Shown one piece after another: positions 10,015 to 50,932 of a stretch of 64,000 bases of DNA. Position 1 is the stretch's first letter. The number at the start of each line of letters is the position of its first letter. The stretch comes from Dehalococcoidia bacterium (GTDB lineage Bacteria; Chloroflexota; Dehalococcoidia; UBA2979), in assembly GCA_964291495.2 (NCBI GenBank), contig OZ219872.1, positions 224,001-288,000 of the forward strand, in the 5' to 3' direction. The notes under the pieces were generated by a model. The model did no database searches. It was not told the DNA's origin and saw only the letters and a list, made by a program, of their open reading frames with translations. A program made the position numbers and the translations under genes.

Positions 10015-10763
10015 TGTCCGACGAGCCGCTGATCGCCATCGAGGGCGTCTCGCTCGCGTATCGCACGCGCGACTACACGCGGCAGGCGTTGCGCGGGGCC
10101 GGCCTCACGGCGCGGGCAGGCGATATCGTGACCATCGAGGGCCCGCCGGGCGCCGGGAAGACCTCGCTGCTGCGCGTCGCCGCCGGGCTGCTCGAGCCGG
10201 ACGAGGGCACGGTCCGCTTCGAGAGTGAGGACCTGGCCGCGCTGGGGTCCTCGGGGCGGCGCGCGCTGCGCGCGGGTCCGATTGCCGTGCTACTGGAGGG
10301 CGGCGGGTTGCTTCCGACGCTCGCCGTCGCAGAGCAGGTCGACCTCGCGTTGCGCATCGCGGGCCTCGGGAGGCGCGAGCGCGCGGCTCGGCGAGGCGAG
10401 CAGCTCGCGGCGACCGGCATCGCGCACCTCGCCGCGCGCCGTCCTCACGAGCTGACGCCGAGCGAGCGCGCGCTGGCCGCGCTGGCGCGCGCCATGGCGG
10501 TCGAGCCGCGCCTGCTCCTCGCCGACGAGCCCGCCGCCGCGATGGACGCCGAGGCGGTGGCGACGCTGGAGCGGCAACTCGCGCTGCTCACGGCCCGCGG
10601 CGGAGCGGCGCTGCTCACGACGAACATCGAGGCAGCGGGCGCCGTCGCCGCGCATCGGCTCGCCATCGAGGATGGCCGGCTGCGTCCGGCAACCCCGTTC
10701 GCCGAGGCGCCCGGCGCGCTACCCATGACCGGGCCCGCGCCCGGCGGGCAGGCCGCGGGCTAG
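10011..10763 (+). CDS. ABC ATP-binding protein (degenerate signature)
   Basis: Walker A GPPGAGKT, Walker B LLLADEP; start overlaps the previous stop. Confidence 0.8.
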   Translation: MMSDEPLIAIEGVSLAYRTRDYTRQALRGAGLTARAGDIVTIEGPPGAGKTSLLRVAAGLLEPDEGTVRFESEDLAALGSSGRRALRAGPIAVLLEGGGLLPTLAVAEQVDLALRIAGLGRRERAARRGEQLAATGIAHLAARRPHELTPSERALAALARAMAVEPRLLLADEPAAAMDAEAVATLERQLALLTARGGAALLTTNIEAAGAVAAHRLAIEDGRLRPATPFAEAPGALPMTGPAPGGQAAG

Positions 10764-35551: not shown

Positions 35552-35798
35552 ATCCTCCCCATACGGTTTTGGCACGCCGGGCGCGTAATAGACGGCCTGT
35601 CCATTACGCGGGCCAGTACGGGCGAGGTCGTGCACGAGGTGCGAGGTCACGAGCCGTTCGCTGGACACTATAGAACGCATGACCTAGCCTAGCCGGAGCC
35701 GCGACGACCGACGAACTCCCCACCGTCGCGGCGCACGGCAGCCACGGCGATCGTTCGTTTTCCGGCGGCGGCCTCCGATGAGCAGGCGGGGGACCATC

Positions 35799-36635
35799 AT
35801 GCCTCTACTTCCACCCCACTTTTTGGACACCGTTGTCGCTCTGGGAGTGCCGCTGGCGGACGACAGCGTCCGCTATACCGCTACTGGGTTCTTCTACGGA
35901 CTGCCCTCTGGCGAGGATGGTCAGTACGAAGTGTTCCTTGTAACCAACCGCCACGTCGTGGAAGGAGCAGCCTCGCTCAAGGCGCGCCTAAACCGTTCTG
36001 GGCGAGCGGATTCTCAGACATACGATGTGGACCTCGAACAGGGAGATTCGAAGCTCTGGACGGCGCATGACACCTGCGACATCGCGGTGATCCCTGTGAA
36101 CGCCAGAATGTTGCAGGATTCTGGGATCCAATTCCGATGGTTTCAGAGCGATCAGCAACCCACACGCGAGGAAGCGGCGGATCTCGAGATAAGCGAAGGG
36201 GACGGCGTTTACGTCTTGGGTTTCCCGCTCGGACTGGCTGGCGAGCATCGCAACTACACAATCGTCCGCCAAGGGGTCATCGCTCGCGTGCGAGACTGGC
36301 TAGGGGAGAGCGGCCGGACGATTCTCGTCGATGCGTCGGTCTTCCCGGGAAACAGCGGGGGACCAGTCATTACCAAGCCTGAGAACTTCTCAATCGAGGG
36401 CACGAAGCACAACAATCGCGCCCTTCTGATCGGAATGGTGGCGTCGTACGTCCCTTACGACGATGTCGCAGTGAGCCAACAGACAGGCCGGCCTCGGGTG
36501 ATCTTCCAGGAGAACTCCGGCCTCGCAGAAGTGGTACCGATCGATGTGGTCCACGAGACGGTAGAGGCTGCGCGCCAGGAGAGAATCGCGACGCAAGAGA
36601 AGAGTGTGTCCGACCCCCCAGCGCAGCCAGCCTGA
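35799..36635 (+). CDS. Trypsin-like serine protease without signal peptide
   Basis: Catalytic triad motifs TNRHVV, DIAV and GNSGGP; visibly lower GC than core genes. Confidence 0.85.
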   Translation: MPLLPPHFLDTVVALGVPLADDSVRYTATGFFYGLPSGEDGQYEVFLVTNRHVVEGAASLKARLNRSGRADSQTYDVDLEQGDSKLWTAHDTCDIAVIPVNARMLQDSGIQFRWFQSDQQPTREEAADLEISEGDGVYVLGFPLGLAGEHRNYTIVRQGVIARVRDWLGESGRTILVDASVFPGNSGGPVITKPENFSIEGTKHNNRALLIGMVASYVPYDDVAVSQQTGRPRVIFQENSGLAEVVPIDVVHETVEAARQERIATQEKSVSDPPAQPA

Positions 36636-41149: not shown

Positions 41150-44100
41150 TCATCGCGCGTGGGACCTTCGATTGTGACGGAGGCGCGAAGCACCGAGCCT
41201 GATCGAGCCTCGAGATACCGAGTCCACCCGCGAGGGGAACGGGTCCACGGTCCTCGTGCCCAGGTTCTCCTCATCGGCTCGCTCCTTGCGACGCCTCCGA
41301 GCGGGGACGAGCAAGGGGATGAGGTACGCGGTGCCCAGGCCAAGTGGCTTCGTGAGGCCGCCGAGGAGCGCGTGCAGGCCGGCGAGCAGTGCGGCCAGGA
41401 GCAGAGCGCCGGCGCCGGCCGCAGCTGCCCTCGTCCGGCCTACCTGCTCAAGGCGGGCAAGCAGTCCCCCGCGCGGGGTGGACAGCGCGCCCTCCGCCAC
41501 GGTCCTCGGAGCTGCCGGCGCATTCGCGCCCACGGCTGATCCCACTGCCGCAGCAGGTTGCCCGGCTTCATCCCCGCCGCTCGGCGCCGGCTCGCCGTCG
41601 GGGTCCGGTGTGGTGGGCGCACCGGGCCCGTCCGGCCCCGGCGCCGTACGGGGCCCGCCGGGGCCCGGCGCGACCGGCCCACCCGGCCCAAGCGGCGTGT
41701 CCGGTCCACCTGGTGTCCCCGGCGGCGTGGGGGTGGTCGGCCCCGGCAGGGTTGGATCCTCGGGCGAGGTGGGCTCGGGAGGCTCCTCACCACCCGGCGG
41801 CGTGGGCGTGGTCGGCCCCGGCGGGGTCGAATCCTCCGGCGGCGTGGGATCCCCAGGCGGGGTGGGCCCGGGGGGCTCCTGACCACCCGGCAGAGTGCGG
41901 CCGGCCGTGGAGCCCTCACCGTCGTCCGACCACGGGCTCACGCCCTCGTCGTTCCGGGCGCGGACCCGCACGTGGTACGCCGTGTCCGCGTGCAGTCCCG
42001 TGATCGTGGTACTCGTGCGCGAGGCGTCGAGGCTCCACTCCGTCCAGTCGGCTCCGTCCGCCTCCCTGTACGCGATGTCGTACGACGTGAGCGGCGGCTT
42101 ACCCGTCATGTCCGGCTCGACCCACGTCACGTCCAGCTCGGACGCCGGGGAGGCCGAAGACAGGACGACCGCTGGCGCGTCCGGCCGGGGTGGCGCCTCG
42201 TCGATGTCGGTGACCCGAATCGTGACCGTCACCGTGACGTCGCTGGAGGCGCCGCCCGCGACGGTCACGGTCACCGAGAACGACTGCGTGGACTCGTGGT
42301 CCAGCACCGCGCCGCTGGCCACGCGGATCTGGCCGGTGGCCGAATCGATCGTGAGGTCGCCGGAGCCCGCGAGCGAGTAGGTCAGCGCTGTGCCATCCGG
42401 AGCAGGCACGTCGATCGGCGCGCCGACGGCTGTGCCGGCCGGTGCGTTCTCGGCCACGGCGCGGACGGCGCTGAGAGGGCCGGGGGCGTCGCCCTCGTTC
42501 TCCGCGTCGGTCGAGCCCGTCCCGGAGTCGGACCAGGCGCTTGTGCCCTCGTCATTGGACGCGGCCACCTGCACCTCGTACGTAGCGCCGGGCTCGAGGT
42601 CCGGAATGGTGGCGGAGGTCGCGGTGCCCGTGACGGCGTGCGCCGACCACGCCTGTTCGCCGTGCTCGCGGTAACGCAGGTCGTAGCCGGTGAGGGCGGG
42701 CCCGGTACTGGCGGGAGCCGTCCAGCTCACGTCGAGCGCGGTCTGAGGCGCGTCGGGCGACGGGCTCACCGCCGGCGCATCGGGCCTGGCCGGCGGCTCG
42801 TCCACGTCGGTCACGGTGATGGTCACGTCGGCGGTTGCGTTGGCCGCGCCGTCCGTGACGTTGACGGTGACCGTGTGCGACTGCGTGGACTCGTAGTCCA
42901 GCACCGCGCCCGTAGCCACGCGGATCTGGCCGCTGGCCGAGTCGATGGTGAACGCGCCGGAGCCTGACAGCGAGTAGGTCAGAGGGTCGCCGTTCCCGCC
43001 CCGTGCGGCGACCGGCGCGCCGACGGGCGTGGCTCCCGGAGCGTTCTCGGCCACCTCGCGGCTGGCGGGATCGAGCTCCAGCGCCGGGGTCGGCGGGGTC
43101 GGAGGCGTCGGCGACAGGACAAGCTCTTGCACGTCGGTCACGGTGATGGTCACGGTGATCAGGGCGTTGACGATGTGACCGTCGGGGAGGTCGTCCACCG
43201 TGTGGGTCGCCCGCACCGTCAGCTCGTGGCTGTGCGCCGTCTCGTAGTCCAGGTGGGCGCCCGGCGCGACCCGGATCTGGCCGGTGACCGGATCGATGAC
43301 GAAGTGGCTCGTCTGTTGCAGGGAGCGCCCACTGTTCCCCGACGCTCCGGAGATGTCCGCCACTACGGTGTAGGTGAGGGTGTGGCCGTCCGGGTCGGTT
43401 GCCGTCACCGGATCGCCGACCGGGGCGCCCGGCTGCGCGTCCTCGGGCACCTCGCGCTCTGCGTCGAGCTGGACGGGGCCGGTCACGCCCGTACCGCTCA
43501 CCGACCAGTCACTCTCGCCCTCGGCGTTGATGGCCAGCACCTGGACCTTGTAGATGGTGGCCGCCTCGAGGCTCTCGATGGTGGTCTTGGTGGCCGTGCC
43601 GCTGACGGTGTGCTCCGTCCACTCCGTCGGACCCGCGGTGCGGTAGCGCACGCGGTAGCCGGTGATCGCCGAGCCGAGGTCGTCCGGCGCCGTCCAGCTC
43701 ACGTCGAGCGAGGTCGCGGGTGCGTCCGCGCCAGCCTCGGCGCTCGGCGCGGCGGGCGTCTCCGGCCCGGTTACGTTCGTCACGTTCACGGTGAGGCTCG
43801 CGGTGGCCTGCTGACCCTGCACGGTCCATGTGACCGTGCCGGAGTAGGAAGTCTTCGTCTCGTAGTCGAGGCTGGCGCCCTGCTTCACGCTGATCTGGCC
43901 CGTGGCCGAGTCGATCTCGAAGGCGCCCGAGGTCGCTGCCTCGCCGCTCAGCGTGTAGCTCAGTGTCCCGGTCCCGTGAGGCGTGCCTGCCACCGCGTCG
44001 CCCGCCGCCGTGCCGGCGGCGGAGTTCTCCGCGATCGACCGGATCACGCTCGCCGTGCCCGTGATCGTCACGGTGCGGGCCAGGTACCCGCCGTACGCGT

Positions 44101-47100
44101 CGCTGGCGGCGTAGGTGACCGCCGCCGCCGCGGGATTGAGAACGGTGACACGCAGGGTGTCCGAATCGCTACCGGTGATGGCGGTGGTGAGCACGCCGGG
44201 ATAGGCCGCCGAGGCCGAGTAGGTCAGCGTGTCACCGTCGGCGTCCTCGAACTTGTCGCTCACGTCGTAGTCGGCGGAGCTCTTCCAGGCGAGCGTGGCG
44301 GCGCTCAGCGACAGCGCGCTGGCGGCTGGTGGCCGGTTGGCCTGCCTGGAGCCGGTGTCGGACCACGGCCCCACGCCTTCCTCGCTGCTCACGGCGCGCA
44401 CCTGTACCTCGTAGGTCGCGCCGGCTTCGAGGTTCGGGAGGTTCACGGTGAGCGTCGACGCCGATAGCACCGTGGTCTCGACGTCGTTGGAGTCGGTGTA
44501 GGTGTAGGCCGTCCACTCCGCGGGGTCTTCACCCGCCGCGACCTGCTTGCGGTACTGGGCCTCGTAGCCGGTGACGGTCGTGCCGTTCGCCTCGGCGGCC
44601 GTCCAGGTCACGTCGAGCGCCGGGTTGGACGGCTCGCTGAACGTCGTGCGGGTCAGCGTCGGCGCGCTGGCAATGACGGCGTTGGTGTCCGACACGTTGA
44701 TCGTGAGGTTCGCGACGGCTGCCTGGCCCTGCACGGTCCAGTGCACCTTGCCCGTGTACGAGCTCTTCGTCTCGCGATCCAGGGTGGCGCCCTGCTTCAC
44801 GCTGATCTGGCCCGTGGCCGAGTCGATGACGAAGGCGCCCGAGGTCGCAGCCTCGCCGCTCAGCGTGTAGCTCAGCGTCTCGGTCCCGTGAGGCGTCCCT
44901 GTGACCGGGTCGCCCACCGCCGTGCCCGCGGCGGCGTTCTCGAGGACGGACCGGGTCACGCTCCTCGCGCCGGTGATCTCGACGGTCAGGGAGGCGTACC
45001 CGCCGTACCCGTCGGAGACGCCGTAGGTGACCGTCGACGCGGCGGGGTTGATGACGGTCACCGTCAGCGTGTCCGCATCGCCGCCCGTGATCGCGGCGGT
45101 GAGCACGCCGGGGTACTCCGAGGAGGCCGAGTAGGTGAGCGTGTCGCCGTCGGCGTCGGAGAACTTGTCGCCGATGTCGTAGTCCGTGGACTGGTTCCAG
45201 GCGGCGGTGGCGGCGGCCAGGGGCGACGTGCCCGCCGTCGGCGGTCGGTTGGCCGTGCCCTCCCCGATGTCCGACCACGGCCCTTCCCCTTCCTCGCTGG
45301 TCAGCGCCCTCACCTGCACCTCGTAGGTCGCGCCGGCCTCGAGGTCGGGGAGGGTGATGCTGGTCGTGGTGGCGGGCAGCTCGGTGGTCTGCTGGTCGTT
45401 GGCGTCGGTGATCGTGTAGTCGGTCCAGTCGTTGGCGGTGTCGCCCTCGGCGACCTTCTTGCGGTACTGGGCGTTGTAGCCGCTGATGGTCAGGCCGTTG
45501 GCCTCGGGGGCGGCCCACGCCACATCAAGCGCCGGGGTCGACTGTTGGCTGAACTCCGTGCGGGTCAGCGTCGGCGCGTCCGGCTTACCGGCCTCGACGT
45601 CCGTCACGTTGATGGTGAGGTCCGCGGTAGCGGTCTGCCCCTGCACCGTCCATGTCACCGATCCGGTGTAGGAGTTCTTCGTCTCGTAGTCCAGGTTGGC
45701 GTCTTCCTGGATGCTGATCTGGCCGGTGGCGGAGTCGATGACGAAAGCCCCGGAGGTCGCCGCCTCGCCGGTGAGCGTGTAGGTCAGCGCATCGTCGGTC
45801 TCATCGTCGCCGTCGTCGTAGGGCGTCCCGGTTACCGGATCCCCCACCGCCGTGCCGGCGGCGGAGTTCTCGGCGATGTCTCGCGTTTCAGCTTGCTTGC
45901 CCGTCCACGAGAACTTCCGGTGTGTATAGCCGCCGTACCCGTCATGCACCCCATAGGTGAGTTCCAGGGTGCCCGGGTTGTAGAAGAGGAATGTCCACCG
46001 CAGAGTCGGCTCATCCGCCAGGAATGGGTACTCCGCAGGTCTCTCCTTCCATTGGAATTCCCCCACGTCCCCGATGCCGGGGTACTGGGACGAGACCGCC
46101 CAACTGAGCGAATCCCCATCCGGGTCCGCGAAATAGATTTCGATCGGCCAGCCGACCCAGAGTTCTCCGACCGGCTGGTTGTTATTCACCAAGTAGTAAT
46201 AGGTCGTGCCGCCGTGATGAACTGCATGATGCGGCGGCCGGTTGGCCCGTCCTTCTCCGATGTCCGACCAGGGGCCGGGGCCCTCCTTGCTCGTGAGGGC
46301 GCGTACCTGTGCCTCGTAGACCTTCCCCGCCGCCAGGTCCGGCAGGTTGAAGCTGGTCGTCGTAGCGGGGAGGGTCTTCGTCGGGTTCCCGTCGGAGCCT
46401 TCGACGGTGTAGTCCGCCCAGGTGTGGGCCGTCTCGCCCTCGGCGACCTTCACGCGGTACCGGGCCTCATAGCCGGTGATGGTCGTGCTGTTGGCGTCGG
46501 GCGCCGTCCAGGTGACGTCCAGTGCCGGGTCGCTCTCCTCTTCGAACCGCGTGCGCGAGACCGTCGGCGTGACAGGCTTCCCCGCCTCGAGGTCCACAAC
46601 GTTGATGGTGACCTCGGCCTCGGCCTCCCGGCCCTGCACGCTCCACGTCACGCTTCCGTGGTAGGACGCCGTGGTCTCGTAGTCCAGGGTCGCGCCCTGC
46701 TTCACGCTGATCTGCCCGCTGCTCGAGTCGATGACGAATGCGCTCGTCGCGGCGCCCGTCAGCGTGTAGCTGAACGTCTCGTTCGCGTAGGGGGTCCCGG
46801 TGACCGGATCGCCCACCGCGGCGCCTGCGGGAGAGTTCTCGTTGATGTCGCGAGTCAACTCGCTCCCGGTCAACCGGGTCGCGACACCTGCGACGTCGAG
46901 GTTCGTGGAGACGTAGCCGCCGTACCCGTCGCTGACCCCGTAGGTGACGGTGGTCGTGGCCGGGTTGAGGACTTCCATCTTCAGGTTGGTGGGATCACTG
47001 CCCTCGATCGAGACCCCGAGCACGCCGGCGTGCGCCGCGGAGGCCGAGTAGGTGAGTGTGTCGCTGTCGTCATCGAGGAAGTCGCCGCTGATCGCTCGAA

Positions 47101-50100
47101 GCGTGGGAGCGTCGCCCCAGCGAAGCGTGAGGAAGAGACCGGTGTTGCTCGGCGCTGCGAGCCGCGGCGGCCGGTTGGCCCGGCCTTCCCCGATGTCCGA
47201 CCAGGGGCCGGGGCCCTCCTTGCTCGTGAGGGCGCGCACCTGCGCCTCGTAGGTCGTCCCCGCCGTCAGGTCCGGCAGGTTGATGCTGGTCGGCGTCGCG
47301 GGCAGGGTCGTGGTTGGATTGTCGTCGGAGCCGGTAACGGTGTAGTCCGTCCAGGCGTTGGCGGTCTCGCCCTCGGCGACCTTCACGCGGTACCGGGCGT
47401 TGTAGCCGGTGATGGTCGTGCCGTTGGCGGGGGCGGCGGTCCACGTCACATCGAGCGCGGGATCCGAGGGCTCACTGAAGCGCGTGCGCGTCACGGTCGG
47501 CGTGCCGGGCTTCCCCGCCTCGAGGTCGGTGACGTTGATGGTGATGTAGATGGCGGCCTTGTACTCCGTGCCGGGTACGGTGTACTCCGTCCTGCCGCTG
47601 TAGGAGCTCTTCGTCTCGTAGTCCGGGGAGACACGTGTCCGGATCAAGCCACCCGACCTGACCTGGAAGTCCCTGAGGTACTCGGCGTCGCCGTGCTGCG
47701 TGTGCTGGGGAATCTGTCCGTTGACCCGCCTTCCACGCACGACTCGAAGCGCGGCCCCGCTAGCGAGGTTCTCGGGAACGTCGATGGTGACGATCCGCTC
47801 CCAGCGGACCAGCCAGGTGTACGACGCCGAGCCTCCGTAGCCGTCGTGGGACGTGAAGGTGATCCCGGCGTCCTCCTTGAGGGGGTGGTAGAAGCGTACC
47901 GTCAGCCCGGGCTCGGGCCCGTTTCCGTCGTCGAATGTGGCTTCCTCGACCGTGACCCACGGGGCCCGGTTCGAGGTGGCCGTGAACGTCAGAGCGTCGC
48001 CATCCGGCTCATGGCTGCTCGCTGCCAGCCACGTGTCATGGATGTCGTGATAGGCGCCAGCCCTGGTGTCTGTGATCAAGTGCACAGGCTGGTTCACGAG
48101 CACGCGGTGGAAGGAGGGCGGCCGGTTGGCCCGGCCTTCCCCGATGTCCGACCAGGGGCCGGGGCCCTCCTTGCTCGTGAGCGCGCGCACCTGCGCCTCG
48201 TAGGTCGTCCCCGCCGTCAGGTCCGGCAGGTTGATGCTTCTCGTGCTCGCGGACAGCGTCCTGGTCTGGGCGCCATTGCCGTCGTCTACGGTGTAGTCCG
48301 TCCATGCGTTGGCGGTGTCGCCCTCGGCGACCTTCACGCGGTACTGGACCTCGTAGCCCGTGATGGTCGTGCCGTTGGCGGGGGCGGCCGTCCACGCGAC
48401 GTCCAGCGCCGGGTCCGTCGGCTCGCTGAACCGCGTGCGGGTCACGGTCGGCGTGCCGGGCTTGCCCGCCTCGAGGTCGATCAGGTTGACCGTGACGTCG
48501 ATGGCGCTGGCGATGCCTCCGACGGTGTACTCCACCTTGCCGGTGTAGGAGCTCTTGGTCTCGTAATCGAGCACGGCCCCGCTCTTCACCCGGATCCGGC
48601 CGCGCGGCTTGATGTAGAAGTGGCCGGAGGTCGCCAGTTCCCCCGTCAGGGTGTAGCGCAGCGTCTCCCGGTTGTAGGGGCGCCCCTGCACCCGGTCTCC
48701 GAGCATGGTCTCGCCCGCCGCGTTCTCGGCGATGGTACGGGTCTCGTTTGCGGTGACCGTGAAAGCATGACCTTGATCGCCGCTGACTCCGCCGTAGGGG
48801 TCTTGCGCCCTGTACGTCAGGCTGCTCTCTCCGGCATTGTGCGCCGCCACCACCAGGTGGACCCCCTCTGTCCATGCGTCGGCCAGGGCCGGATGCGCCG
48901 GGGTCGCCGAATACGTGAGTGTGTCTCCGTCGGCGTCTGAGAAGTGCGCCTCGATCGTCTCGTTGACGAGTAGCCAGGAGACCTTGTACGGGTAAGCGAC
49001 ATCGACGTAGAAGACCCCCGTGGTGGTCGGCGGCCGGTTGGCCCGGCCTTCCCCGATGTCCGACCAGGGACCCGTGCCCTCGTCGCTGCTCACCGCCCGC
49101 ACCTGCGCCTCGTAGACGGCGCCGGCCTCGAGGCTTGCGAGATTGAAGGTCGTCGCCGTCGCGCCGAGCGTGCCGCTGTAGTCGGTCCACTGGTTGGCCT
49201 CTTCGCCCTCGGCGACCTTCTTGCGGTGCCGCGCCTCGTAGCCGGTGATGGTCGTGCCGTTGGCGGCGCCGGCCCAGGTCACATCCAGCGCCGGGTCCGT
49301 CGGCCCGCTGAACTCCGTGCGGGTCAGCGTGGGCGCGCTCGCGACGACGGGCGCCACGTCGGTCACGAGGATGCTGACATTGATGACCGCGGCGTGGCCG
49401 TCGACCGTGTAGTGCACCTCGCCGCGGTAGAACTTGGCGATCAGCTGGCCCTCGAAGGTCTCTGTCTCGCGGTGCGCGTCGTCGGTCTCGTAGTCGAGCG
49501 TCGCGCCCTGCGCGAGGCTGATCTGGCCGCTGGCGGAGTCGATGACGAACTTCCCGGAGTCGGCCGCATTGCCTGCGAGCGTGTAGCCCAGCGCGTCGTC
49601 GGTCTGATCGTCCCCGTCGTCGTACGGCGTCCCGGTGACCGGCGCGCCCACGGCCGTGCCCGCGGCGGAGTTCTCCGCGATGCTGCGGCTCGTCTTCGCG
49701 GTGACCGTGATGGTCGCGGTGCGCGTGACCTGCCCGCCGAAGGCGTCCGTGGCCGTGAAGGTGATCGTCGAGGCGCCCTGGTTGAGCAGGGTCGCCGTCA
49801 GCGTGGCGCTCCCGGCCGCGCCGGACAGGCTGACCCCGAGCAGGGCGGGGTGCTGCGAGGAGGCCGTGTAGGTCAGCGTGTCGCCGTCGGCGTCCGCGAA
49901 GAACGGCCCCAGCGCGCCCTGCCCGGTCTCGGCGTAGGTACGGATGGTCCCGACCGGGAACGTCCCGCCGTTGAAGGCTGCGCTCGTCGCGGTCGGCGGC
50001 CGGTTGGCCCGCCCCGACCCGGTGTCCGACCATTCGCCCAGACCCTGCTCATTCGTGCCGGTGACCACCTGCACCTCGTAGGTCGCGCCGGCCTCGAGGT

Positions 50101-50932
50101 CGGTCAGCCTGTGGCTGGCGGTCTCGATGACCGTGCTGTCCTCGGTCCACTCGGTGACACCCTGCTTGCGGTACCGCAGCTTGTACCAGCTGATGGTGAG
50201 ACCGAGGTCATCCGGGTTCGTCCAGCTCACGTCCAGCGCGGGGTTCATCGGGGCATCGGACCGGGTGCGGGTGACGGTGAGGCTGCCGACACGCGGCTTG
50301 ACGACCGTCTGCTTTGCCGTCACCGGGGCCGCCTCCACGGTGACGGCGATGGCGAACGAGGCCTGGTCGCCGTCCTCGTCCGTGGCGCTGTAGGTCAGCG
50401 AGAACTCGCCGGCCTCGGACGGCGTGCCGCCGAGGGCGCGGGTCGCCGCGTCGAAGGTCATGCCCGCGGGCAGGCCCGTCAGGCTGTAGGTCAGCGTGCC
50501 GTCGCCGCCCTCGGCTGCGGGCAGCGTGACCGCGGTGGCTTCCTCGCCTTCGTCGAATGACAGGCCGCTGATGGCGGCGGAGAAGGACGGCACCAGGTTG
50601 GTCTCGGGCGTGGGCTCGGGAGTCGGCTCCGGCGTCGCGGTGGCCTCGGGGGTCGGCTCCGGCGTCGGGGTGGCCTCGGGGGTCGGCTCGGGAGTCGGCT
50701 CCGGCGTCGGGGTGGCCTCGGGGGTCGGCTCTGGTGTGGGCTCCGGCGTCGGCTCCGGCGTGGGTGCCGGTGTCGGCTCCGGCGTGGGCGTCGACTTCTC
50801 GACGGGCTCGAGGTTCGTCTCCTGCGCCACGACCGGCGCCGGGGAGAGCGCGGTCGCGAGCGCAGCCAGCACCAGGGCGATCATCGCCCCAGTGAGGACG
50901 AGTGTTCTCAGTCGGCCTGCGCCACTGATCAT
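41150..50932 (-). CDS. Giant surface protein/adhesin (3260 aa): signal peptide, TPEP repeats, putative Ig, about 10 Fn3, about 10 cadherin-like and 7 Ig-like domains, Pro-rich stalk, C-terminal TM anchor
   Basis: Fn3 motifs LDV.W..P, Y.VQVRA, G.WS; cadherin motifs ENS..G..VG.P and LDYET; D.DGD.LTY; C-terminal hydrophobic segment followed by RRRRK. Confidence 0.92.
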   Translation of the reverse strand: MISGAGRLRTLVLTGAMIALVLAALATALSPAPVVAQETNLEPVEKSTPTPEPTPAPTPEPTPEPTPEPTPEATPTPEPTPEPTPEATPTPEPTPEATATPEPTPEPTPETNLVPSFSAAISGLSFDEGEEATAVTLPAAEGGDGTLTYSLTGLPAGMTFDAATRALGGTPSEAGEFSLTYSATDEDGDQASFAIAVTVEAAPVTAKQTVVKPRVGSLTVTRTRSDAPMNPALDVSWTNPDDLGLTISWYKLRYRKQGVTEWTEDSTVIETASHRLTDLEAGATYEVQVVTGTNEQGLGEWSDTGSGRANRPPTATSAAFNGGTFPVGTIRTYAETGQGALGPFFADADGDTLTYTASSQHPALLGVSLSGAAGSATLTATLLNQGASTITFTATDAFGGQVTRTATITVTAKTSRSIAENSAAGTAVGAPVTGTPYDDGDDQTDDALGYTLAGNAADSGKFVIDSASGQISLAQGATLDYETDDAHRETETFEGQLIAKFYRGEVHYTVDGHAAVINVSILVTDVAPVVASAPTLTRTEFSGPTDPALDVTWAGAANGTTITGYEARHRKKVAEGEEANQWTDYSGTLGATATTFNLASLEAGAVYEAQVRAVSSDEGTGPWSDIGEGRANRPPTTTGVFYVDVAYPYKVSWLLVNETIEAHFSDADGDTLTYSATPAHPALADAWTEGVHLVVAAHNAGESSLTYRAQDPYGGVSGDQGHAFTVTANETRTIAENAAGETMLGDRVQGRPYNRETLRYTLTGELATSGHFYIKPRGRIRVKSGAVLDYETKSSYTGKVEYTVGGIASAIDVTVNLIDLEAGKPGTPTVTRTRFSEPTDPALDVAWTAAPANGTTITGYEVQYRVKVAEGDTANAWTDYTVDDGNGAQTRTLSASTRSINLPDLTAGTTYEAQVRALTSKEGPGPWSDIGEGRANRPPSFHRVLVNQPVHLITDTRAGAYHDIHDTWLAASSHEPDGDALTFTATSNRAPWVTVEEATFDDGNGPEPGLTVRFYHPLKEDAGITFTSHDGYGGSASYTWLVRWERIVTIDVPENLASGAALRVVRGRRVNGQIPQHTQHGDAEYLRDFQVRSGGLIRTRVSPDYETKSSYSGRTEYTVPGTEYKAAIYITINVTDLEAGKPGTPTVTRTRFSEPSDPALDVTWTAAPANGTTITGYNARYRVKVAEGETANAWTDYTVTGSDDNPTTTLPATPTSINLPDLTAGTTYEAQVRALTSKEGPGPWSDIGEGRANRPPRLAAPSNTGLFLTLRWGDAPTLRAISGDFLDDDSDTLTYSASAAHAGVLGVSIEGSDPTNLKMEVLNPATTTVTYGVSDGYGGYVSTNLDVAGVATRLTGSELTRDINENSPAGAAVGDPVTGTPYANETFSYTLTGAATSAFVIDSSSGQISVKQGATLDYETTASYHGSVTWSVQGREAEAEVTINVVDLEAGKPVTPTVSRTRFEEESDPALDVTWTAPDANSTTITGYEARYRVKVAEGETAHTWADYTVEGSDGNPTKTLPATTTSFNLPDLAAGKVYEAQVRALTSKEGPGPWSDIGEGRANRPPHHAVHHGGTTYYYLVNNNQPVGELWVGWPIEIYFADPDGDSLSWAVSSQYPGIGDVGEFQWKERPAEYPFLADEPTLRWTFLFYNPGTLELTYGVHDGYGGYTHRKFSWTGKQAETRDIAENSAAGTAVGDPVTGTPYDDGDDETDDALTYTLTGEAATSGAFVIDSATGQISIQEDANLDYETKNSYTGSVTWTVQGQTATADLTINVTDVEAGKPDAPTLTRTEFSQQSTPALDVAWAAPEANGLTISGYNAQYRKKVAEGDTANDWTDYTITDANDQQTTELPATTTSITLPDLEAGATYEVQVRALTSEEGEGPWSDIGEGTANRPPTAGTSPLAAATAAWNQSTDYDIGDKFSDADGDTLTYSASSEYPGVLTAAITGGDADTLTVTVINPAASTVTYGVSDGYGGYASLTVEITGARSVTRSVLENAAAGTAVGDPVTGTPHGTETLSYTLSGEAATSGAFVIDSATGQISVKQGATLDRETKSSYTGKVHWTVQGQAAVANLTINVSDTNAVIASAPTLTRTTFSEPSNPALDVTWTAAEANGTTVTGYEAQYRKQVAAGEDPAEWTAYTYTDSNDVETTVLSASTLTVNLPNLEAGATYEVQVRAVSSEEGVGPWSDTGSRQANRPPAASALSLSAATLAWKSSADYDVSDKFEDADGDTLTYSASAAYPGVLTTAITGSDSDTLRVTVLNPAAAAVTYAASDAYGGYLARTVTITGTASVIRSIAENSAAGTAAGDAVAGTPHGTGTLSYTLSGEAATSGAFEIDSATGQISVKQGASLDYETKTSYSGTVTWTVQGQQATASLTVNVTNVTGPETPAAPSAEAGADAPATSLDVSWTAPDDLGSAITGYRVRYRTAGPTEWTEHTVSGTATKTTIESLEAATIYKVQVLAINAEGESDWSVSGTGVTGPVQLDAEREVPEDAQPGAPVGDPVTATDPDGHTLTYTVVADISGASGNSGRSLQQTSHFVIDPVTGQIRVAPGAHLDYETAHSHELTVRATHTVDDLPDGHIVNALITVTITVTDVQELVLSPTPPTPPTPALELDPASREVAENAPGATPVGAPVAARGGNGDPLTYSLSGSGAFTIDSASGQIRVATGAVLDYESTQSHTVTVNVTDGAANATADVTITVTDVDEPPARPDAPAVSPSPDAPQTALDVSWTAPASTGPALTGYDLRYREHGEQAWSAHAVTGTATSATIPDLEPGATYEVQVAASNDEGTSAWSDSGTGSTDAENEGDAPGPLSAVRAVAENAPAGTAVGAPIDVPAPDGTALTYSLAGSGDLTIDSATGQIRVASGAVLDHESTQSFSVTVTVAGGASSDVTVTVTIRVTDIDEAPPRPDAPAVVLSSASPASELDVTWVEPDMTGKPPLTSYDIAYREADGADWTEWSLDASRTSTTITGLHADTAYHVRVRARNDEGVSPWSDDGEGSTAGRTLPGGQEPPGPTPPGDPTPPEDSTPPGPTTPTPPGGEEPPEPTSPEDPTLPGPTTPTPPGTPGGPDTPLGPGGPVAPGPGGPRTAPGPDGPGAPTTPDPDGEPAPSGGDEAGQPAAAVGSAVGANAPAAPRTVAEGALSTPRGGLLARLEQVGRTRAAAAGAGALLLAALLAGLHALLGGLTKPLGLGTAYLIPLLVPARRRRKERADEENLGTRTVDPFPSRVDSVSRGSIRLGASRLRHNRRSHAR
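50601..50790 (-). repeat. Tandem coding repeat (TPEP/TPEA linker)
   Basis: Repeated units such as GGCGTCGGCTCC encoding PTPEPTPE. Confidence 0.85.

Follow-up and report, generated by a model that had tools for sequence, protein, structure and literature searches.

The window analysed in this work is a stretch of 64,000 nucleotides (contig OZ219872.1, positions 224,001 to 288,000) from the genome of a Dehalococcoidia bacterium (assembly GCA_964291495.2, here G000; 8 contigs, 3.08 Mb, 93.7% complete). Its subject is one gene on the minus strand, 41150..50932, encoding a putative giant surface adhesin of 3260 amino acids (P0001) in a single open reading frame (ORF), inside which lies the region flagged by an earlier sequence-only reading. 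Among the twelve sequencing runs listed as holding this DNA, ten are labelled as sponge metagenome and two with a coded organism name, and most of the DNA is found in one run.

A giant gene of seven three-domain modules

A Pfam scan of P0001 reported ten stretches of fn3 (PF00041; 352.9 bits against a gathering cut-off of 25) and seven of Cadherin (PF00028; 189.2 bits against a cut-off of 28.8), together with Big_9 and He_PIG. The pentapeptide ANRPP occurs seven times, each copy marking the Fn3 end of a module. The seven modules in tandem, which the sequence-only reading had correctly described, are each 294-331 amino acids long, follow the order Fn3, Big_9-like immunoglobulin (Ig) domain and cadherin, and together occupy window positions 50293-43766; they are numbered M1 to M7 from the N- to the C-terminal end. 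Tandem Repeats Finder (TRF) reported no module-length array in the gene. The features are as follows, with GC3 denoting the GC content of third codon positions.

41150..50932, minus strand: whole gene P0001, a single ORF with Pfam fn3, Cadherin, Big_9 and He_PIG
50822..50932, minus strand: N-terminal hydrophobic segment resembling a signal peptide, residues 1-37, read from the translation with no predictor
50594..50800, minus strand: linker rich in Pro, Thr and Glu with short tandem repeats, from the translation; TRF arrays at 50603-50790
50336..50542, minus strand: He_PIG-type Ig domain, residues 131-199 (Pfam PF05345, 40.1 bits)
49346..50293, minus strand: M1, with a short Fn3, Ig type A (49691-49993) and a cadherin with a 15-residue insertion
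48464..49345, minus strand: M2, with Ig type B (48743-49027), aromatic-rich, GC3 0.79
47513..48463, minus strand: M3, with Ig type C (47789-48115) and a divergent cadherin
46580..47512, minus strand: M4, with Ig type D (46856-47164)
45587..46579, minus strand: M5, with Ig type E (45887-46231), 21.7% Trp, Tyr, His and Arg, GC3 0.74
44675..45586, minus strand: M6, with Ig type F (44957-45238)
43766..44674, minus strand: M7, with Ig type F' (44045-44326)
41900..43765, minus strand: tail of Fn3-Cad-Cad-Fn3-Cad-Fn3 without Ig cassettes, from Pfam
41150..41899, minus strand: Pro-rich stalk, C-terminal hydrophobic helix and RRRRK tail, from the translation

The C-terminal helix and the basic tail behind it are the putative membrane anchor of the protein. 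Domain order in the Fn3/cadherin tail is kept in relatives, and the tail is 73% identical to the record of another species of the genus, G001. The sequence of the stalk (41150-41900) is not conserved, consisting in G001 (L022) of approximately 25 tandem PDQP(A/T/V)T units and in G000 of an irregular stretch rich in Pro, Gly and Thr. An antisense open frame of 1399 codons (44741-48940, plus strand) is a chance expectation in a gene of 70% GC, and was not counted as a gene.

The middle domains differ in how readily they are recognised. Scanned singly against Big_9 (PF17963, gathering score 23.6), those of M1 (31.5) and M6 (26.8) exceed the cut-off, those of M2 (23.3), M7 (21.9) and M4 (20.2) score slightly under it, and neither that of M3 nor that of M5 gave a match. 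All of them align to a common D.DGD / YGG scaffold, which had been said to persist through the modules and which does so well beyond this gene: across 57 modules from eight genomes, a set from which both halves of the frame-broken module 3 of the relative G008 were left out, no variation occurs at D154, D156, L158, D213, G216 and G217, and conservation is at least 90% at D152 and Y215. Given the alignment of these 57 modules, AlphaFold2 modelled three beta-sandwiches per module (mean predicted local distance difference test score of 93.1 for M5 and 86.6 for M3), with confidence lowest directly after ANRPP. The best Foldseek matches were the EC1-3 arrays of protocadherins and the FN1-3 arrays of contactins, at 12-16% identity.

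The compositional contrast between cassettes was also described accurately. Trp, Tyr, His and Arg together make up 14.7% of the Ig domain in M2, 19.3% in M3 and 21.7% in M5, against 5.0-9.7% in M1, M4, M6 and M7; M4, at 9.7%, is therefore not aromatic-rich. The same three Ig parts are lower in GC (0.64 in M2, 0.66 in M3 and 0.59 in M5, against 0.70-0.74 in their Fn3 domains) and in GC3 (0.79, 0.87 and 0.74 respectively, against 0.91-0.96).

Homogenised Fn3 ends and breaks at domain borders

The Fn3 ends had been described as nearly identical in DNA, and at four of them a 38-nucleotide motif, the anchor, recurs with no mismatch. It occurs at exactly four sites in the window (46236, 47169, 48120 and 49032); 100 shuffles of the sequence produced no match.

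49032..49069, minus strand: anchor copy at the 3' end of the M2 Fn3, encoding PWSDIGEGRANRP
48120..48157, minus strand: anchor copy of M3
47169..47206, minus strand: anchor copy of M4
46236..46273, minus strand: anchor copy of M5

Beyond these ends the similarity collapses as abruptly as the sequence-only reading had stated. In sliding windows along a codon alignment, the pairs M3/M4, M4/M5 and M3/M5 are 87-98% identical over the final ~40 codons of Fn3 (72-95% at third positions) and fall to 22-54% in the windows after ANRPP. An identical run of 65 nucleotides common to M3 and M4 ends at the Fn3/Ig junction. By comparison, M6 and M7 retain a sliding identity of 65-95% along the whole module. 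One correction concerns M3, where the divergent block after ANRPP extends through the cadherin as well (30-39% amino acid identity to other modules).

The history of the M3 Fn3 changes along its length. Compared with its paralog M4, it differs at 7 of 132 nucleotides in the 3' part and 36 of 216 in the 5' part, whereas its ortholog in the related species G003 (g003_m1) differs at 21 of 132 and 21 of 216; the nearest relative is therefore the ortholog in the 5' two-thirds and the paralog in the 3' third (Fisher p = 0.008 for the 3' part). The motifs at the Fn3 3' ends are specific to each genome, being shared by modules 3, 4 and 5 in G000, by modules 3 and 4 in G008, and by modules 4, 5 and 6 in G001, where the three are alike over the whole Fn3 (6-21 differences per segment, against 26-48 to g000_m6). 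These observations support the homogenisation of the Fn3 3' end within each genome, with the Fn3/Ig border as a recombination breakpoint.

Plain tandem duplication followed by unequal constraint, in which purifying selection held the Fn3 domains while the Ig domains diverged quickly in place without any recombination at the borders, would suit the Fn3 being the most conserved domain overall, as well as the pair M6 and M7, which resemble simple duplicates with an even 65-75% amino acid identity in all three domains. It is nevertheless an improbable account of the gene for five reasons. Firstly, third-position identity drops along with total identity at the junction. Secondly, for the same pairs of G000 paralogs, synonymous divergence (dS) amounts to 0.26-0.38 across Fn3 but 0.84-1.65 across Ig, although the Ig values in non-homologous pairs are saturated and depend on the alignment. 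Thirdly, the nearest relative of the M3 Fn3 switches from ortholog to paralog. Fourthly, the trees of the three domains reject one another, as detailed below. Fifthly, Ig types are conserved at 90-95% between species, and therefore the Ig divergence is old and the Fn3 similarity recent.

Cassette types and their probable exchange among relatives

Three more species of the genus have homologous giants (G001, G003 and G008), as do loci L024-L027, and 198 proteins of 1793-5705 amino acids in a large protein collection match at E <= 1e-30; by title, the related records are Dehalococcoidia or Tepidiformaceae metagenome-assembled genomes (MAGs). The number of modules, compared here between different species rather than strains, is six in L025, seven in G000, G001, L026 and L027, eight in G008, P0014 and P0015, ten in L024, and at least seven in G003 and P0013, both of whose genes are cut. 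Several of these records have peculiarities of their own. The genes of G008 (L021, C14, ~2900-2935) and L025 (~10359-10483) are each split over two overlapping reading frames, perhaps by an indel from sequencing or perhaps by a genuine frameshift; in G008 the break lies inside the cadherin of module 3. The close homologue of L027 (CBDBMW010000002.1), with seven modules and a tail 55% identical, sits in a contig record whose title says Vicinamibacterales, a sign of mistaken binning or labelling, or else of lateral transfer. An anchor scan of JGI metagenome contigs returned a single locus, L046, where a related gene (1-1438) has a Calx-beta domain nested in Fn3 (PF03160, 31.9 bits against a cut-off of 27, residues 111-201). 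The insert comes after the last long strand and before the PWSDIGEG...ANRPP end, and a type A Ig cassette stands next to it on the C-terminal side.

From their sequences, the Ig cassettes of these proteins appear to form a small set of old types that selection has kept. The type A domain of M1 is 90% identical to that of g008_m1, and the type D domain of M4 is 91-93% identical to those of g003_m3 and g008_m4 (dN/dS 0.14-0.20), with 91-95% identity among G000, G003 and G008; overall, identity between species is 90-95% for types A and D, and their dN/dS of 0.11-0.23 resembles that of the flanking domains. Hence "hypervariable", as the sequence-only reading called these cassettes, is the wrong word, because the types recur and are conserved between species. 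The equivalent comparison of M2 with g008_m2 gives 51% identity in Ig, 86% in Fn3 and 88% in cadherin. In type E, the first ~20 residues after ANRPP differ strongly between species and have no DNA-level alignment; no other segment gives the impression of rapid evolution inside a type. Cadherins that follow a type A Ig (g000_m1, at window positions 49346-49690, g003_m1 and g008_m1) have a conserved 15-residue insertion, DAHRETETF.GQ.IAKF, which all other modules lack. The M3 block, comprising the type C Ig and its cadherin, was found only in G000, with its scaffold motifs kept: the best match to type C was 41% identical among 401 genomes of the class and 36% among proteins of 353-2000 amino acids, and no alignment of at least 70 amino acids was found among the 129 family proteins compared.

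A recent import of the aromatic-rich cassettes of lower GC3 (types B, C and E) from donors of lower GC, outside the genus, is doubtful. Types B and E do have the same low GC3 of 0.70-0.79 in every species carrying them, against 0.89-0.97 in their flanks; type C lacks a close relative in the genus, and weak relatives of type E, at 40-42% identity, occur in another genus. However, the searches did not turn up a donor, with identities peaking at 36-42% beyond G000, G003, G008 and the P-set, and codons for Trp, Tyr, His, Asn and Phe lower GC by themselves. Furthermore, a GC3 of 0.70-0.87 is also seen in ordinary neighbouring genes, and because these span 0.70-0.94, GC3 is not decisive as a sign of foreign origin.

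The three domains of the module have distinct histories. When trees of each were inferred with FastTree from the 57 modules and compared by approximately unbiased (AU) tests in IQ-TREE, every domain alignment rejected the other two trees (log-likelihood differences of 308-1332; AU p of 1e-34 to 1e-151), with the least conflict between Ig and cadherin. Ig identity is under 50% in 37 of the 59 pairs with Fn3 identity of at least 80%, and cadherin identity is also at least 80% in 19 of the 30 pairs in which Ig identity reaches 80%. Breakpoints occur at the Fn3/Ig border and more rarely between Ig and cadherin. The pair count was repeated on a long-contig set, consisting of assemblies with contigs of at least 1 Mb together with G000, G001, L025 and L026 (72 modules from 11 genomes, leaving out P0002 as a duplicate of L025); here, pairs alike in Fn3 were unlike in Ig in 20 of 26 cases within genomes and 31 of 48 between genomes.

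Individual frames illustrate the same pattern. The Fn3 of M3 is 91% identical to that of g003_m1 and 86% to that of g008_m3, yet the Ig is 22% and the cadherin 30-38% identical; this frame holds type A in G003 and G008. In the M6 frame of G000, G003 and G008, Fn3 and cadherin have 76-96% nucleotide identity around an Ig interior of 12-60%, with three different Ig types, whereas the control frames M1, M4 and M7 are uniform across the three genomes. The protein P0013 (3154 amino acids, from a 48-kb ENA contig) is 67% identical to P0001 overall and 82-88% identical in its remaining modules, but its module 5 matches M5 at 99% in Ig and 97% in cadherin. The Fn3 preceding this shared block is ~65% identical and of the M6-frame type, the frame following it has a different Ig type, and the shift to near-identity falls within the anchor peptide. 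The block may be either a recent cassette transfer between lineages, or an assembler jump between co-occurring strains at the repeat. P0017, on a 3.19-Mb contig, independently supports the placement of type E on another Fn3, as its type E Ig (81%) and cadherin (92%) stand behind a different Fn3 (64%).

The suggestion that Fn3 blocks serve as recombination anchors for swapping the domains between them is consequently borne out in part: the homogenisation, the breakpoints and the differing cassettes in shared frames agree with it, but no within-cell mechanism was seen. Several observations also weigh against exchange of cassettes having shaped the gene. A clean Ig-only swap in a conserved Fn3 and cadherin frame is seen solely against G003, G008 and P0013, which were judged from their contig counts or sizes to be short-read assemblies, and in the long-contig set none of the ten between-genome pairs with both Fn3 and cadherin at 80% or more had an Ig identity under 50%. 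The 99% block of P0013 may result from a chimeric assembly across the repeated anchor. The contigs mapping to the gene are short unitigs, and their joints have the 21-57 nucleotide sides typical of repeats. In addition, the Ig dS values are affected by the saturation described above, and the reduced GC3 of types B and E falls within the range of the neighbouring genes.

Taken to its conclusion, this line of reasoning would make most between-species cassette swapping an artefact of assemblers jumping at repeated Fn3 and cadherin stretches. The fragmentation of G003 (150 contigs, with the gene cut at a contig end) and G008 (140 contigs, with the frame break in module 3), the short contig of P0013, the fragmented Logan contigs of the adhesin gene with their many repeat joints, and the lack of Ig-only swaps in the long-contig set are all in its favour. 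Nevertheless, it is improbable as the general explanation. The G000 junctions are backed by independent contigs, with the border between the M3 Fn3 and type C bridged by X12 record 21 (48047-48389, 0 differences), and that between the M5 Fn3 and type E by X1 record 4 (45803-46345, 37 differences). G003 and P0013, which are separate assemblies, carry an agreeing cassette in the M6 frame (Ig 84% identical). The discordance between Fn3 and Ig persists within and between the long-contig genomes, and the P0017 junction lies in a multi-megabase contig. The joints between Logan unitigs (15 listed and 78 unlisted) probably represent repeats or relatives. The best candidate among them for a variant in module number, a joint from 44654 to 46560 that skips 1905 nucleotides, had a 57-nucleotide side and was present in X11 only, and was not counted.

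A different explanation again is that the gene is the target of a programmed diversifying system, in which a diversity-generating retroelement, or gene conversion from silent cassettes, changes the Ig domains within a lineage. Antigenic variation by gene conversion from silent cassettes is exemplified by pilE/pilS, vlsE and msp2. Like these systems, P0001 has variable segments between conserved sequence suited to homologous recombination; like the Ig-like or lectin-like targets of diversity-generating retroelements, it would be surface-exposed and has a localised variable patch. The strong divergence of the first ~20 residues of type E between species, in a segment of low model confidence, could also be read this way. 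Yet such a system is extremely improbable. As the sequence-only reading had noted for the window, no reverse transcriptase was found: PF00078 had no match in G000, at 93.7% completeness, while being present in 3 of 14 control genomes, and there was no recombinase among ten scanned neighbouring ORFs. There is no cassette store, as 29 Ig cassettes from four species had significant blastn matches to G000 inside the adhesin gene only, the four matches elsewhere being short and at chance level (25-53 nucleotides, E of 1e-5 or weaker). The anchor is confined to the adhesin gene, with all nine genome matches inside C6:265.9-274.3 kb. No template repeat for the M3 or M5 Ig DNA was found in G000, each matching itself only. 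Logan unitigs from X12, a second sample of the same study, and X4, from a different study, are identical to parts of cassettes C and E (0 differences), and no within-strain switching was seen in these short unitigs. Unlike the products of a retroelement, the cassette differences extend beyond adenine-templated sites to whole domains that are 20-50% identical, and unlike silent cassettes, they are whole folded domains conserved between species. An active or programmed diversifying system is therefore not supported, and the shuffling is an evolutionary pattern.

Relation to known surface proteins and proposed mechanism

The best explanation, to which we assign a probability of roughly 0.7, is that P0001 is a single giant surface adhesin of sponge-associated Dehalococcoidia, made mosaic by gene conversion and cassette exchange. 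This reading accounts for the anatomy of the gene, its homogenised Fn3 ends, its breakpoints, and the differing cassette content and module number of related species; from the sequences, we infer the surface location, the adhesive role, the Ig domain as specificity element and the exchange between lineages. The protein would be exported, its C-terminal helix keeping it in the membrane and the proline-rich stalk spanning the envelope. A rod of Fn3 and cadherin domains would then present the Ig domains, the conserved D.DGD being a possible Ca2+ site. Ligand specificity probably resides in the middle Ig domain, often jointly with its cadherin, and the aromatic- and His/Arg-rich types B, C and E above all would confer it. 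Non-allelic gene conversion between modules keeps the Fn3 domains of a genome alike, especially over their last ~130 nucleotides, and homologous recombination in the conserved stretches would move, duplicate, delete or replace Ig or Ig-plus-cadherin cassettes, in part within the gene and probably in part between co-resident relatives. In this way, specificities might be reshuffled under selection in the sponge matrix.

Pfam assigned ten neighbouring ORFs to a sensor kinase/response regulator, a MarR regulator, a methyltransferase, a trypsin-like peptidase and a glutamyl-tRNA synthetase, with five of the ten having no match. The ten included no recognisable gene for secretion, a sortase or a recombinase, nor any ABC-transporter, MFP or TolC family. 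The ORF of the trypsin-like peptidase (35778-36635, plus strand; Trypsin_2, 56.5 bits) has a GC of 0.60 and a GC3 of 0.70, against 0.82-0.94 in its neighbours. Among the 12 Pfam families found in P0001 at E <= 0.01 there is no RTX family, and the last 316 amino acids gave no curated sorting signal in NCBIfam, only a sub-threshold lectin match. Hence P0001, with its hydrophobic helix and basic tail, is unlike the RTX adhesins and other giants exported by type I secretion systems, which were absent from the scanned neighbours.

Genes with cadherin and Fn3 domains are reported to be enriched in sponge MAGs and to be among their lateral transfers, Fn3 being particularly abundant in Chloroflexota (PMC8163846). 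The eukaryote-like surface proteins of sponge symbionts (PMC8163846, PMC3909097) resemble P0001 in their domain families, their signal peptide or transmembrane features, their sponge habitat and their presumed role in attachment. In the portions of these papers drawn on here, domains are counted per genome, and the tri-domain module, the homogenised Fn3 and the cassette exchange are not described. A narrow literature search likewise found no description of this type of module or its cassette exchange.

P0001 behaves in part like the Periscope proteins, tandem beta-sandwich surface proteins in which similarity between repeats drives intragenic recombination and changes in repeat number (PMC8201768). 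Repeat number varies here too, with 6-10 modules among species. However, Periscope repeats are near-identical throughout, acting as a spacer for one distal binding domain, and P0001 instead is homogenised in Fn3, mainly over the last ~130 nucleotides, with 87-98% identity in the Fn3 3' part only and 22-54% in Ig. Each of its modules also has a different Ig type, such that recombination alters content as well as length, and its anchor, as read from the sequence, is a C-terminal helix rather than a wall-sorting motif. Clustered protocadherins and the ectodomains of contactin and Dscam are also strings of cadherin or Fn3/Ig domains, whose specificity comes from alternative variable domains set on a constant frame. 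The resemblance goes no further than analogy, at 12-16% identity; the eukaryotic variety arises from alternative exons or promoters, whereas that of P0001 comes from genomic recombination over evolutionary time.

A more ambitious extension of the mosaic reading, though an unlikely one, is that co-resident sponge Dehalococcoidia keep a shared pool of Ig and Ig-plus-cadherin cassettes, exchanged via the homogenised Fn3 and cadherin borders. If so, the block common to G000 and P0013 would have been transferred recently, the recognition domains shown on the constant rod would come in a combination particular to each lineage, and the system would be a population-level, recombination-driven counterpart of the combinatorial surface identity of protocadherins and Dscam.

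Fn3, cadherin and Ig surface proteins of sponge symbionts are known, and P0001 adds a clear example of domain-level mosaic evolution. Such genes are prone to mis-assembly, and hence should be compared from long reads only; this locus also yields defined constructs for binding assays. Proteins of this kind are usually reported as domain counts, and P0001 shows how one of them is built and how it changes, with its middle domains, above all types B, C and E, being candidates for the recognition of the host or of partners.

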